DNA of 64,000 nt from Candidatus Woesearchaeota archaeon (GTDB taxonomy: Archaea; Nanobdellota; Nanobdellia; SCGC-AAA011-G17; UBA489): positions 279 to 64,278 of the forward strand of contig CAYFOE010000004.1 of assembly GCA_964344635.1 (NCBI GenBank). The letters run 5' to 3'. The notes beneath the pieces are model-generated. The model was not told the DNA's origin and did not search any database. It was given only the letters and a program-made list of their open reading frames with translations. Of this stretch, positions 2,410-12,591 are shown in pieces; the first letter of the stretch is position 1, and each line of letters begins with the position of its first letter. The translations under genes and the position numbers were made by a program.

Positions 2410-5400
2410 ATGATTCTAGAAAAAAGAGGATACTGGAAGTTTTTGGTATTACTTGCAAGTATGTTTTTGTTTTCAATTTATCCTACCAATGCACAAGAAA
2501 TGGGTTGTTGTGAATATGACGGACAAGGAAGCTACTGTCTGCCAACCACCCAGGCAAATTGCGATCCTAATGCATTATGGACTTCAGTTTCATGCGAACA
2601 AACCAGCTTTTGTTCAGTAGGCTGTTGCATTAATTCCATAGATGGATCCTGTAGTGAAAATGTCCCACAAGCAGCCTGTGAGAACACTCAGAACACTGCA
2701 TTCCATGAAGGAACTAGTTGTGATACAATCTCTTATTGTCAAATGGGTTGTTGTGAACTAGGGAGTAGTTTTATTTTTAATACAAAACAATCCTGTCAAA
2801 GACTAATTGATGAATATTATCCCTCACTAGACATTGAACAATCATGGAATGATCAAATAACCGATGAGTATACCTGTATATCTCAGTCCATACAGGAAGA
2901 CGAAGGATGCTGCGTCGAATCAGACGGAGTTTTCAACTACTGTAATTGGGGAACAAGAGGAACCTGCTCTACTAGCGGAGAAGAAAACAGTGCAGAAAGT
3001 TCCGAAGGATTTTACAAAGACATTTTTTGTAGCAACTCCAACCTAGAATGTAGTACCTGCACAGCTCACGTATACACTGATTGTGGAGGACAGAATAACG
3101 AAGATGTTTATTGGTTTGACTCTTGCGGGAATAGAGAAGAACTAGTGGAATCATGTGACCCGCTTGGAATTTATGGAGCCGGAAGCATCTGTAAAAATGA
3201 TGGAAATAATGCAGCCTGTTCTAGCGTGGACTGTGAAGACACCTCCGATTTTTTGAACAATGTTCACGATCCTGAAATGGGAGGTTATCGGTCCAACGGA
3301 GAGAGTTGGTGTGTAAGGCAGGCCAAAGTAGGCATAGGTTCAGACCTACCAGGAAGTAGACATTATAGATATTCTTGTATTTATGGAGAAGAATTAGTAG
3401 AGTCCTGTGATGAATTCAGGGAAGACATTTGTTTACAGTTTTTACCCAATGAATCATCAGGTATGAATTTTGCAGCATGTGTTGAAAATGAAGGAGCTAA
3501 CTGTGTCAGTGAATGCAACAAAAAACCACTTAATGAAAAAAGAAATCAAAACGAAGCCTGCTGCGAACAATATGACTCCTGTTCTTGGATGAGCTCTGCA
3601 TGCGTTCCGAATGTCCCCCCAGGCTATGCATTCGATGATAGATTTGTTCAAACAACACCAGAATATTCTGCAAAAGACCAATGTAAAGTAGGCAATGCTG
3701 AATGTGAAAGTGTCTGGGTAAAAAATTGGAAATTCCAATGGGAATGTAAAGAAAATTGTCATTGCATGAACGAAGACTGGCCTGCAGACATGAACACATT
3801 CTGTAGAAGTTTAGGAGACTGTGGCGCATGGTATAATCTAGCCGGAGAGTTTACATCTAGTGGCCAAAGAACCGGAGGAAGTGGCCAAACCAAAAATTTG
3901 AATTCTAAAGATTATCAAAAAGATTATCCATTCTCTGAAGTAATCAATGGTGGCGACCAACTAACCATCAATTCCGAGTTATTAAAACACACAACCGCAT
4001 GGGAAATGTATCACTTTTGGAGAGTTGAAGCTATATTTTTATGGCCAATTTGGTTTTTGGAAGATTTTGACAGTGCATTGACATCTTTTTTAAGAGCAGC
4101 AGGCTTTGGTTGGTTATTTGGAATCGGAGACAGGAAAACTAAAACCCATAAATTCTTTTGTTCACCCTGGCAAGCACCTCTAAGATCAGACAGTTGCGAG
4201 CAATGTAGTGACCTGGCACCCGACGGAGTTTGCTATGAATCACTATGTAGGAGCCTAGGAAAGAATTGTGAATTAATTAATGGCGATGATCCAATACTCG
4301 CAGAATGCATTAGTGGAAGTGTTAACGATGTAGTTCCTCCACACATAACACCCTCCTTTGAAATTATTGAAAATCAAAAAGACCAATTTGATGTTAACTA
4401 CCAAGTAAATATCATCTCCGGAGGAAACGGCTTTGTTATAGATCCTGACGTTGACCCCCTGAAAGAATTTGTGATCGGACTAGAAACAAATGAGCCCGCA
4501 CAATGCAGATATGATTTCAGTTTAGATAAAATAAGTTATTATGAAATGGACTATGAATTCGACGAAGGTAGCGCATTAGTTCATGAACACAACCTAAGCC
4601 TAGTCCTGCCTGGAGGAAAAGATTACGAACTCTATGTGAGGTGTATGGACTTCTACGAAAATGGTGAAGATGCCCCACCCTACCTTGTTAAGTTTAATAC
4701 AAAAGATGAACCCGACAATCAACCAGCAATAATTCTTGCAACAGACCCTTGGCAAGGAAGCCCAGTAGCTTACAATGTAAATGAAACCCCACTGATACTA
4801 TACCTGAATGAACCAGTAGAAACATGTAGATGGAGCAATCAAAACATTCCATTCGAACAAATGCATCTAAACAATAGCTTCTTCTGCGGATGTGACGTAG
4901 GAGAATTAAACTCATGTACCGGAACTAGTGCTTCAGGAGGGGAAGATCTTTGCGAGTACTTAGATGAGAACGGCCTATTTGTTTATGATGACTTTGAGTG
5001 CGTCGGATTATTGGAAGGAATACAACCCGAACAAGAAAACGAATTCTTTATCTCATGTGTAGACATTCAAAAGGACGATGGAACTGGTTGTAATTATTTC
5101 TCAAACAATTACAAGTTTAGTCTAATGGGAAGTTCAGAACTAGAAATCATCAGCGCAGAACCAGAAAATGGAACATATTACACACCCTGGTTTGATGTAA
5201 GAATTACCACACTAGGCGGAGCGGATAATGGAAACGCAGTTTGTTATTTAGACGGCATTGAATTCTATGAAACAGGAAGCAATTTGCATATTCAATCACA
5301 AAACAGATCTGCAGGAAGTTACGAGTACGGCATTGAGTGTATGGATGTTGCAGGGAATGTAGCAAGTATAGCGATGGAAATAGAAATTGATATCGATGAC

Positions 5401-5643
5401 AATGCACCCACAGTTGAAAACTTATACCTCCAAGGCGGAATACTCTACTTGATCACTGACGAACCAAGCACTTGCGAATATAGCATAGATAATCCTGAAT
5501 TTTCAATTGGAAACGGATTAGAACTAACCGGAAGAATGGTAAAAGAGCACAGCCTTGCATTTGTTGAAGACGTCTACTACATCAAATGCTATGATTCTTA
5601 TACGAATATAGGAGAAACAATAAGTGTCTATAATGGGGCTTAG
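2410..5643 (+). CDS. Giant secreted Cys-rich protein, paralog 1 (N-terminal CC modules, central hydrophobic insert, C-terminal Ig-like repeats)
   Basis: 1077 aa; signal peptide ending TNA|Q; repeated GCC motifs, YWFDSCGN, LGDCGAWYN, CSPWQAP; acidic C-terminal repeats NEPAQCRY / NEPVETCRW / DEPSTCEY. Confidence 0.85.
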   Translation: MILEKRGYWKFLVLLASMFLFSIYPTNAQEMGCCEYDGQGSYCLPTTQANCDPNALWTSVSCEQTSFCSVGCCINSIDGSCSENVPQAACENTQNTAFHEGTSCDTISYCQMGCCELGSSFIFNTKQSCQRLIDEYYPSLDIEQSWNDQITDEYTCISQSIQEDEGCCVESDGVFNYCNWGTRGTCSTSGEENSAESSEGFYKDIFCSNSNLECSTCTAHVYTDCGGQNNEDVYWFDSCGNREELVESCDPLGIYGAGSICKNDGNNAACSSVDCEDTSDFLNNVHDPEMGGYRSNGESWCVRQAKVGIGSDLPGSRHYRYSCIYGEELVESCDEFREDICLQFLPNESSGMNFAACVENEGANCVSECNKKPLNEKRNQNEACCEQYDSCSWMSSACVPNVPPGYAFDDRFVQTTPEYSAKDQCKVGNAECESVWVKNWKFQWECKENCHCMNEDWPADMNTFCRSLGDCGAWYNLAGEFTSSGQRTGGSGQTKNLNSKDYQKDYPFSEVINGGDQLTINSELLKHTTAWEMYHFWRVEAIFLWPIWFLEDFDSALTSFLRAAGFGWLFGIGDRKTKTHKFFCSPWQAPLRSDSCEQCSDLAPDGVCYESLCRSLGKNCELINGDDPILAECISGSVNDVVPPHITPSFEIIENQKDQFDVNYQVNIISGGNGFVIDPDVDPLKEFVIGLETNEPAQCRYDFSLDKISYYEMDYEFDEGSALVHEHNLSLVLPGGKDYELYVRCMDFYENGEDAPPYLVKFNTKDEPDNQPAIILATDPWQGSPVAYNVNETPLILYLNEPVETCRWSNQNIPFEQMHLNNSFFCGCDVGELNSCTGTSASGGEDLCEYLDENGLFVYDDFECVGLLEGIQPEQENEFFISCVDIQKDDGTGCNYFSNNYKFSLMGSSELEIISAEPENGTYYTPWFDVRITTLGGADNGNAVCYLDGIEFYETGSNLHIQSQNRSAGSYEYGIECMDVAGNVASIAMEIEIDIDDNAPTVENLYLQGGILYLITDEPSTCEYSIDNPEFSIGNGLELTGRMVKEHSLAFVEDVYYIKCYDSYTNIGETISVYNGA

Positions 5644-5697
5644 ATTGGCTAAAAGGAATATTTATATAGGTTGGATGAATAAAATTAGAAAGATGGG

Positions 5698-11637: not shown

Positions 11638-12170
11638 TGAAAAAAGGTCAAGTTCATATTTCAGAAACAATTTTAGTATTGTTCGTAGTTATAGTAATCA
11701 TACTCTTAGGAATGATTGTATACTTTAGGTTTTCAATCGAAAAAAACAAAGCCTTGGCAGATGAACTAAGTGAGGAAGAAGCAACAGTTTTGCTTGCAAA
11801 AGTGAACAATCTTGGAGAATTTTCTTGCAGTGATGAAGAATGTATGGACACTTCTAAATTTTTGCCATTTAGAAAGGCTTTAGGAGAAGACATTCAGTTC
11901 TATAGAAACGTATTTGGAAGGAAAAAAATCACATTCAAAAGAATTTATCCTGAACCTTCAGATGACGTAAAAGACATGGAATGTGATGTATCAAAATACA
12001 TCCAACTGGAATACCCAAATAATTGTGCAGTTTGGTCAGTTTATGACTACAACCCCGAAAATGCCTTGGGACCCTCCATTTCTGTACCAATCTCACTATA
12101 TTTTCCTGAAATTGATGAATATCACATTGGGAGGCTAGAAATCCAGCATTTTGGAGATATAAGGAACTAA
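11637..12170 (+). CDS. Pilin-like protein, class III signal (KKG|QV)
   Basis: MKKGQVHISETILVLFVVIVIILLGMIVYF; TAATG overlap with the previous gene. Confidence 0.8.
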   Translation: MKKGQVHISETILVLFVVIVIILLGMIVYFRFSIEKNKALADELSEEEATVLLAKVNNLGEFSCSDEECMDTSKFLPFRKALGEDIQFYRNVFGRKKITFKRIYPEPSDDVKDMECDVSKYIQLEYPNNCAVWSVYDYNPENALGPSISVPISLYFPEIDEYHIGRLEIQHFGDIRN

Positions 12171-12171
12171 A

Positions 12172-12591
12172 ATGAAGAAAGGTCAATCTGAAATAGTAGG
12201 TTTATTGGTTATTGTAGTGATTTTGATATTTATGGGCCTAATCTACCTAAGTTTTTCAAATCTTGCAGACACCGGAGCTTTAGCATCTCAAAGAAGTAAT
12301 TTAGAGACTGAAAATGCCTTAAAATCTTTAATGAAGATGGATTTAGGCGATGAATTGAGTATTAAGGAACTAATTGTTATTTGTGGAACCAATGGAGACT
12401 GTAATGGACTAGAAACGGAATTAGAAGATATTTTTGAAGTAATCATTAAACCCGGAAAACAATTTAGTTTTTGGATCGAGATGGAAGAAACACAGATATT
12501 TGCAATAGGACACTGTGATCTAGGCCTAGTTTCAAGCAATCTTTTTGTAAAAAATGGAATATATTATGAAGCAAAATTGAAAGTCTGTTAG
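12172..12591 (+). CDS. Pilin-like protein, class III signal (KKG|QS, E at +3)
   Basis: MKKGQSEIVGLLVIVVILIFMGLIYL. Confidence 0.8.
   Translation: MKKGQSEIVGLLVIVVILIFMGLIYLSFSNLADTGALASQRSNLETENALKSLMKMDLGDELSIKELIVICGTNGDCNGLETELEDIFEVIIKPGKQFSFWIEMEETQIFAIGHCDLGLVSSNLFVKNGIYYEAKLKVC

Follow-up and report, generated by a model that had tools for sequence, protein, structure and literature searches.

What kind of surface structure is built where two giant, cysteine-rich secreted proteins alternate with pilin-like genes in an archaeal genome? The question is raised by seven co-oriented genes, here named gA, pB, gC, pD, pE, pF and pG, which lie at positions 2,410 to 12,591 of a 64,000-nucleotide stretch of DNA (the window; positions 279 to 64,278 of contig CAYFOE010000004.1, here contig C4) from the 658-kb, 95% complete genome assembly GCA_964344635.1 of a Candidatus Woesearchaeota archaeon. 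Woese- and Pacearchaeota count among the most abundant archaea not yet in culture. An earlier note, made from the sequence of the stretch, had proposed that the genes encode a complex of minor pilins with a Cys-rich tip adhesin of a family other than PilY1. We read the region, with a probability of roughly 55%, as encoding the pilins and the cargo or adhesin-display component of a surface system that is related to type IV filaments (T4F) and belongs to Nanoarchaeia (DPANN archaea of the Woese-/Pacearchaeota type); its motor genes lie elsewhere.

The evidence that carries this reading comes from other orders, where pB and a giant are encoded as one protein. Nine genes in six genomes of other orders encode proteins of 890-1196 amino acids in which a complete pB domain with its class III leader comes first (E 1e-37 to 1e-63) and the giant core follows. 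Because a word-index search recovered only 4 fused homologs, an exhaustive profile search with the pB domain was needed; it gave 9049 representative matches, and we read the architecture of the top 150. Among these, 124 stand alone (140-378 amino acids, mostly about 250) and 26 are long (734-1333 amino acids), with the giant core directly after pB in 26 of 26 long proteins, and [KR][GAS]Q lies within the first 45 residues of 139 of the 150. In the fused forms the N-terminal class III helix is the only hydrophobic segment; the window's order, by contrast, has split giants that gained a Sec signal, additional Cys repeats at the N-terminus and, in gC, a hydrophobic insert. This Rosetta-stone fusion in other lineages is strong evidence that pB and the giants work together physically as a single unit, with the pilin-type helix as its anchor. 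Within the window's own order, pB always stands immediately 5' of a giant, with a 4-nucleotide overlap in 9 of 20 pB/giant pairs. Outside the window, a 659-residue protein (C5:11565-13544) fuses a pB-type class III domain (E 8e-31) to an unrelated C-terminal module of about 430 residues, suggesting that pB is a portable anchor for different surface modules. Because related lineages fuse one pilin-type protein to a giant, we regard the operon as the best genomic candidate for the display of a large adhesin-like protein on a pilus-type structure by uncultured DPANN cells.

We wondered whether the five small proteins carry the hallmarks of type IV filament subunits. pB, pD, pF and pG begin with a short basic leader ending in [KR][GA], with Gln at +1 and about 20 hydrophobic residues thereafter; in pE the leader is followed by Asp, then a short polar stretch and then the hydrophobic helix. 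The class III motif is kept in every ortholog examined, 17-25 per family, and is therefore not due to chance. The number of cysteines is even in every pilin-like protein, with two or four conserved per family: four are invariant in the pB globular domain and two in pG, in which Q+1, E+3 and G+6 are invariant as well. An AlphaFold2 model of pB, with a predicted local distance difference test score (pLDDT) of 87.9, places a hydrophobic helix at residues 19-48 and a second helix at 54-86 ahead of beta-sheets, a predicted layout that is pilin-like. By the logic of their sequences the five are class III proteins; by fold they carry no assignment.

The giants gA and gC are, as the earlier note had it, disulfide-rich paralogs of more than 1000 residues; they are collinear, align over their full length at 29% identity (E 6e-129) and share the motifs VYWFDSCGN and LGDCGAWYN. 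Both are strongly acidic and begin with a Sec-type signal peptide whose VxA|Q site is kept in the family consensus. In gA the signal is followed by a Cys-rich N-terminal half, a 107-residue Cys-free aromatic and hydrophobic insert, and a C-terminal array of immunoglobulin (Ig)-like domains. gC is the more conserved of the two; it has at least 1132 homologs, every one annotated 'hypothetical', is found in 41 of 41 same-order relatives, and has its nearest named homologs in metagenome bins of Nanoarchaeota, Woesearchaeota and Nanoarchaeia. The AlphaFold2 model of gC (67 homologs; pLDDT 80.3, predicted template-modelling score 0.56) has a beta-rich, disulfide-dense N-terminal half and four C-terminal beta-sandwich domains, with a poorly modelled central segment (residues 587-668) that forms two long helices.

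Among the 50 best matches listed for the gC model from the PDB and from the viral database BFVD, Foldseek gave only tandem arrays of Ig, fibronectin type III and cadherin domains, with matches to the C-terminal half dominating; they include receptor phosphatases, protocadherins, the GhpA grappling-hook protein and phage fibre proteins. This resemblance of the C-terminal half to the Ig arrays of adhesion molecules and phage fibres supports an adhesion-like display part. Because these arrays dominate the whole-model matches in both databases, the Cys-rich half has no fold assignment. Comparison of a gC profile with the PDB gave nothing meaningful, the sole hint being a weak match (E 0.3) of an Ig repeat to 2yn3, a 'putative inner membrane protein' that we take to be the Salmonella giant adhesin SiiE. 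Neither giant has a Pfam match to the PilY1 beta-propeller or to DUF2341 at E <= 1.

The arrangement of these genes is conserved well beyond the window. The order giant-pB-giant-pD-pE-pF-pG recurs in 20 loci fetched from the same order, and the sister family keeps the whole arrangement in the same gene order. Further away, we found the pE-pF-pG block again in 20 other-order loci, most of which also have pD ahead of it; this cassette follows one or two secreted proteins of 900-2400 residues in 19 of the 20, and in 17 of those 19 an upstream protein shares Ig-type or 'CC' modules with gA and gC. Everywhere sampled, then, homologs of the giants are linked to class III genes, and in other orders the giant is itself fused to pB. 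pF, the one cassette gene that we surveyed across the phylum, is present in 138 of a sample of 151 high-quality genomes, mostly as a single copy. In other orders the cassette also precedes many class III genes, including tandem pilins of 80-100 residues with a small Cys-knob, which are obvious candidates for major pilins. The counterpart of this downstream half in the present genome is a class III run at C3:56757-62590, upstream of the same RPA-like gene; one gene of this run, C3:59530-59991, encodes a protein related to the small pilins (E 7e-10). The class-wide layout, in which a large secreted protein is followed by pD-pE-pF-pG and by more class III genes, strengthens the analogy with minor pilins that accompany a large non-pilin protein. 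In 11 of the other-order loci the large proteins preceding the cassette match a 791-residue protein encoded outside the window at C5:26084-28459, itself a paralog of the S-layer protein (E 6e-69); this hints that S-layer-like proteins and cassette-associated giants may share modules.

Two further single loci from other orders bear on this layout. In one, a 1353-residue frame (L088:4295-8356) runs from a large secreted protein with Ig modules into a pD domain (residues 1169-1256, E 6e-17) with no stop between the parts, and is either a giant-pD fusion or an assembly error. In the other, a 418-residue pB-like class III protein (L091:858-2114) stands immediately before a different giant of 1850 residues (2071-7623), which is followed by pD-pE-pF-pG, so that adaptor, giant and cassette are laid out as in the window around a non-orthologous giant.

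If the cassette belongs to a filament system, which machinery would process and assemble it? The earlier note had suggested searching the genome for the prepilin peptidase PibD and a pilus motor, and both kinds of gene are present, all outside the window. A prepilin peptidase of the Peptidase_A24 / PibD-FlaK type is encoded at C3:66671-67549 (50-54 bits against a cut-off of 26.5, with a weak Arc_PepC match), and such a gene is found in 147 of the 151 genomes of the phylum sample. Three FlaI-family ATPases (C1:54944, C8:17629 and C3:48532) exceed the T2SSE cut-off and score 283, 400 and 118 bits, respectively, with the FlaI model; TadC/FlaJ-type platform genes are present too: the C1 and C8 loci each have two T2SSF genes beside a single ATPase, together with pilins of their own. 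At C3:48532-52970 (L093:532-4967), a 759-residue FlaI-like ATPase is followed by a 714-residue protein of about eight transmembrane segments that has no Pfam match; the latter is single-copy in 150 of the 151 genomes, mostly at 41-56% identity, and its conservation far exceeds that of usual pilus platform proteins. In another order (L070) the two genes again lie side by side, and a fused pB-giant gene is 4 kb away. The search for a retraction ATPase was negative: PilT-family models score well under their cut-offs with the C1 and C8 ATPases and do not match the C3 ATPase, and the BasE model likewise falls far short of its cut-off with the genome's ATPases.

Within the window itself, the earlier note's statement that there is no pilus ATPase or TadC gene is correct. 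The only T2SSE match there is a 594-residue minus-strand protein (59579-61363) made up of a PIN domain and a T2SSE-like ATPase domain; its gene adjoins one of the CofD family (58594-59577), and we rejected the protein as a pilus motor. We likewise set aside the secretion system of Makarova 2015 (arCOG01314/arCOG02884), having found no MoxR, vWA or DUF4350 match in the seven proteins or in the upstream 216-residue open reading frame.

Taken as a display system, the locus could work as follows. PibD would remove the short leaders, and pD-pG would assemble, much like minor pilins, into a complex of four that primes or caps a filament or a short stalk. The filament or stalk itself would be built of small class III pilins encoded elsewhere, for which the small-pilin relative on C3 is the candidate in this genome. 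The pilin-type hydrophobic helix of pB would hold the Sec-exported, disulfide-locked gA and gC on this structure, so that their conserved Cys-rich head and four Ig-like domains could be displayed beyond the S-layer and, adhesin-like, contact cells or surfaces. Filament assembly, leader cleavage, a tip position, adhesion and host attachment are all steps that we infer.

Several points weigh against such a display system or limit the earlier note's reading. No curated pilin model reaches its cut-off on any of the pilin-like proteins: the closest are PF07790 (Pilin_N) on pF, at E 0.23 and 12.8 bits against 25.2, and TIGR02537 (the archaellin/type IV pilin N-terminal domain) on pG, at 14.8 bits against 20 and sub-threshold in 4 of 18 orthologs, along with a sub-threshold match of the UpsA model to pG. 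Indeed, gA, pB, gC and pD-pG all stay sub-threshold in Pfam and NCBIfam scans, their ortholog sets included. The search with the pB model gave no PDB neighbour at E <= 0.001, so the pilin fold of pB is not confirmed, and profiles of pF and pG found no solved pilin in the PDB. Between the cassette and the universal ATPase/platform pair lie 8-195 kb (pF against platform gene coordinates), and in 10 other-order loci no ATPase or TadC homolog occurs in the 16.5-20 kb upstream of the large proteins; on these grounds we rejected motor linkage as a general feature. The S-layer gene that follows pG is linked to the operon in the window's order and one sister family only: it adjoins the pG/pF end in 15 of 15 evaluable same-order loci and in 3 of 3 sister-family loci, and in 0 of 20 loci from other orders. 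Within-family identity to the window is 45-55% for gC, 47-52% for pB, 36-47% for pF, 25-36% for pD and pE, and 48-52% for the S-layer protein; gC is thus about as conserved as the S-layer protein and therefore evolves slowly, which, on these alignments, would fit a structural role better than host-specific adhesion. The two hydrophobic helices of gC-type giants could also make them integral membrane proteins and not filament cargo. Finally, what we observe are the operon, the class III motifs, the fusion, the phyletic spread and the machinery, each a step removed from a filament, from leader processing and from adhesion. The earlier note's idea of minor pilins with a non-PilY1 Cys-rich adhesin therefore stands in part: class III linkage, the pB fusion, the machinery and the class-wide layout speak for it, and the silent pilin models, the pB fold search and the S-layer-like pace of the giants speak against it. 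Of the outcomes that the earlier note said would refute it, neither homologs unlinked to class III genes nor a genome lacking a prepilin peptidase and pilus motor was observed.

The main rival is a fixed envelope complex with no pilus at all, which we consider possible, if clearly less probable than filament display. As in the Sulfolobus bindosome, the class III N-termini would then serve only as cleavable membrane anchors or make up a very short stalk of pseudopilus type, and the giants, as structural envelope proteins kept in the membrane through a hydrophobic hairpin of their own, would organise, anchor or perforate the S-layer. The near-universal, mostly single-copy pF and the highly conserved giants are consistent with this, as are the strict adjacency of operon and S-layer gene across the order and sister family, the matches of the large proteins of other orders to the genome's S-layer paralog, and the distance to any dedicated motor. 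The hairpin would be supplied by the insert that lies between the invariant motifs GDCGAxYN and CxxWxAP, a hypervariable segment of 107 to 391 residues across homologs, which has 0.3% Cys compared with 6.0% in the remainder of the protein and, across orthologs, 11.8% Gly and 9.9% Ala compared with 7.9% and 6.1%. In gC the insert (ALGPALGITAIGAGLSLGAVGG...) is essentially Cys-free and hydrophobic, with two hydrophobic helices predicted at low confidence at residues ~601-622 and ~665-690, the second of which carries a conserved W.YTIY.L.D.L motif in orthologs. However, only about half of the homologs have segments here that score as transmembrane-like, and the segments are missing from the fused pB-giant relatives, which are anchored solely by the pilin-type helix; in the window's gC, the loop that joins the two helices contains neither Lys nor Arg, as would be unusual for a loop on the cytoplasmic side. 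These features may speak against a transmembrane hairpin. S-layer adjacency is also missing in other orders, where the cassette stands before typical small pilin genes, and in the window the S-layer gene appears to be a separate transcription unit.

Other readings would extend or replace display on a filament, two of them turning on the composition of the same insert. DPANN symbionts form intimate membrane contacts, and a hydrophobic, Gly/Ala-enriched, hypervariable segment flanked by rigid disulfide-rich scaffolds could, if presented on a pilin scaffold, enter the host membrane and open a cytoplasmic bridge. We think such a membrane-contact or fusion device quite unlikely: folds of gC compared with the PDB and BFVD give generic Ig arrays, with no fusexin-like class II fusogen among the 50 best matches listed, in which the N-terminal half may be masked by the Ig arrays; moreover, the segments score as transmembrane-like in only roughly half of the homologs and are missing in the fused relatives, and the insert is modelled at pLDDT < 50. 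Slightly less improbable, though still speculative, is that the cassette, pB and the giants together form a core envelope-spanning contact organelle, indispensable to Nanoarchaeia and driven by the universal 759-residue ATPase and 714-residue platform pair, with the giants' Gly/Ala-rich helices inserting into a partner membrane to dock or open a bridge. Least probable of all, in our view, is a Com-like uptake pseudopilus, a retractable fibre of the five pilin-like proteins that would capture DNA or nutrients with the giants as its receptor, and that would explain conservation in auxotrophic, reduced genomes. ComGC-GG and GspG-K each comprise five pilin-type genes, a parallel to the five here, and the phylum-wide pF and the universal ATPase/platform pair are consistent with such a role; but the seven proteins show no DNA-binding or ComEC-like feature in Pfam and NCBIfam scans, the giants look like adhesion-type Ig arrays, and the genome search turned up no ATPase for retraction. 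Display of the giants on a T4F-related structure thus remains our preferred reading.

The layout of the window itself is given in Table 1. The open reading frames described in the earlier note, two collinear giants alternating with pB and followed by four coupled class III genes, were borne out, with successive gaps between the seven genes of 54, 10, 37, -11, -1 and +1 nucleotides, and so was the placement of the operon directly upstream of an S-layer gene. Both S-layer models exceed their cut-offs (PF05124, 58 bits against 23.9; TIGR01564, 46 bits against 25). The T-run of the spacer, read from the sequence, lies immediately 3' of pG; together with the TATA-like box it probably represents an archaeal terminator followed by a promoter. 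Because the spacer holds both, the S-layer gene would be its own transcription unit, outside the operon; it is a neighbour of the operon and at most a putative component of the system.

Table 1. Coordinates of the operon and the adjoining S-layer gene, numbered from the first letter of the window.
Feature	Position	Strand	Description	Basis
gA	2410-5643	+	1077 aa, 68 Cys (6.3%), giant secreted protein	Open reading frame, sequence
pB	5698-6504	+	268 aa, KKA|Q, class III signal peptide	Open reading frame, 25-ortholog alignment
gC	6515-10069	+	1184 aa, 66 Cys (5.6%), giant secreted protein	Open reading frame, homologs, AlphaFold2 model
gC central insert	8159-8620	+	aa 549-702, between LGDCGAWYN and CxxWQAP	
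pD	10107-10646	+	179 aa, KRG|Q; opens the conserved four-gene cassette	
pE	10636-11637	+	333 aa, class III-type, KKG|D; 11-nt overlap with pD	
pF	11637-12170	+	177 aa, KKG|Q, 4 invariant Cys; best-conserved cassette member	
pG	12172-12591	+	139 aa, KKG|QSE; smallest class III protein	
Spacer	12592-12852		261 nt; T-run CCAGTTTTTTTG, TATA-like TTTATAA, GGAGG 8 nt before the S-layer ATG	
S-layer protein gene	12853-15471	+		PF05124, E 1.2e-15; TIGR01564, E 2.9e-12

Beyond the S-layer gene, positions 15588-17279 hold three genes for proteins of 154, 193 and 214 residues, the last two being N-terminally anchored paralogs; this trio stays with the S-layer gene across the order and sister family, and the 154-residue protein has a paralog at C3:27910-28362. 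A second group of surface-protein genes lies at 50938-56378 and comprises an 845-residue open reading frame, a 356-residue Cys-rich one with a weak MopE-type metal-binding motif, and a 627-residue protein. The last begins LQKGQAAMEF..., a class III-like leader with Glu at +5, and three further proteins of this KGQAAMEF type are encoded in the genome, at C2:40989, C2:48938 and C6:3288.

How does this locus relate to what has been described? DPANN genomes carry scattered system-1-type pilins (PMC13705601), and Makarova et al. (PMC4858521, PMC6393860) and a 2026 census of T4F systems (PMC13705601) found DPANN pilin genes divergent and scattered, and left it an open question whether their products build a structure. 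Our literature search, which included these three papers, found no description of this family, of the cluster or of the pB-giant fusion. New here are the gene order kept across an order and its sister family, the fusion, the near-universal pF, the layout of the cassette in other orders and the machinery in the genome. The seven protein families, which lie outside Pfam and NCBIfam and include a class-wide 'minor pilin' cassette, form a concrete target set in which gene fusion links a giant adhesin-like protein to its pilin anchor; they can also serve as markers for comparing attachment hardware across DPANN orders.

The window's gene set belongs to none of the PilY1, Epd or PilB families, although it resembles each of them in part. 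In the bacterial type IVa pilus, the minor pilins FimU-PilV-PilW-PilX form a priming/tip complex with the non-pilin adhesin PilY1 of about 1,100 residues; as here, four small prepilin-type proteins are encoded with a Sec-exported non-pilin of more than 1000 residues, and the pilin genes stand apart from the motor genes. There is, however, no relation in sequence or fold: the giants are Cys-rich proteins with Ig arrays and lack the beta-propeller/DUF2341 match, the window set includes pB, an additional adaptor pilin which many lineages fuse to the giant, and it is found in archaea that have an S-layer and lack a secretin. In archaeal T4F system 1, exemplified by the Epd loci of Methanococcus maripaludis (PMC4858521, PMC13705601), a single locus likewise encodes class III minor pilins and a pair of large adhesin-like proteins, and the C1 and C8 loci of the present genome show its hallmark of one ATPase and two platform genes; yet the large Epd proteins carry DUF2341, no Epd pilin model matched here, and the machinery genes (ATPase, platform and peptidase) are all missing from the window cluster. 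The Sulfolobus bindosome (Bas; PMC3047682) is similar in that class III signal peptides occur on envelope surface proteins other than classic pilus subunits, but the Bas substrates are sugar-binding proteins, a domain type missing here, and the BasE model stays well under its cut-off on the genome's ATPases. In modular type IV pilins such as Streptococcus sanguinis PilB, an architecture thought to place adhesive modules on filaments (PMC8179133), a pilin-type N-terminus carries a large functional module, as in the fused relatives of pB; in those relatives the module is disulfide-rich and spans about 850-1100 residues, whereas in the window's order it has been split off as a separate Sec-exported protein.

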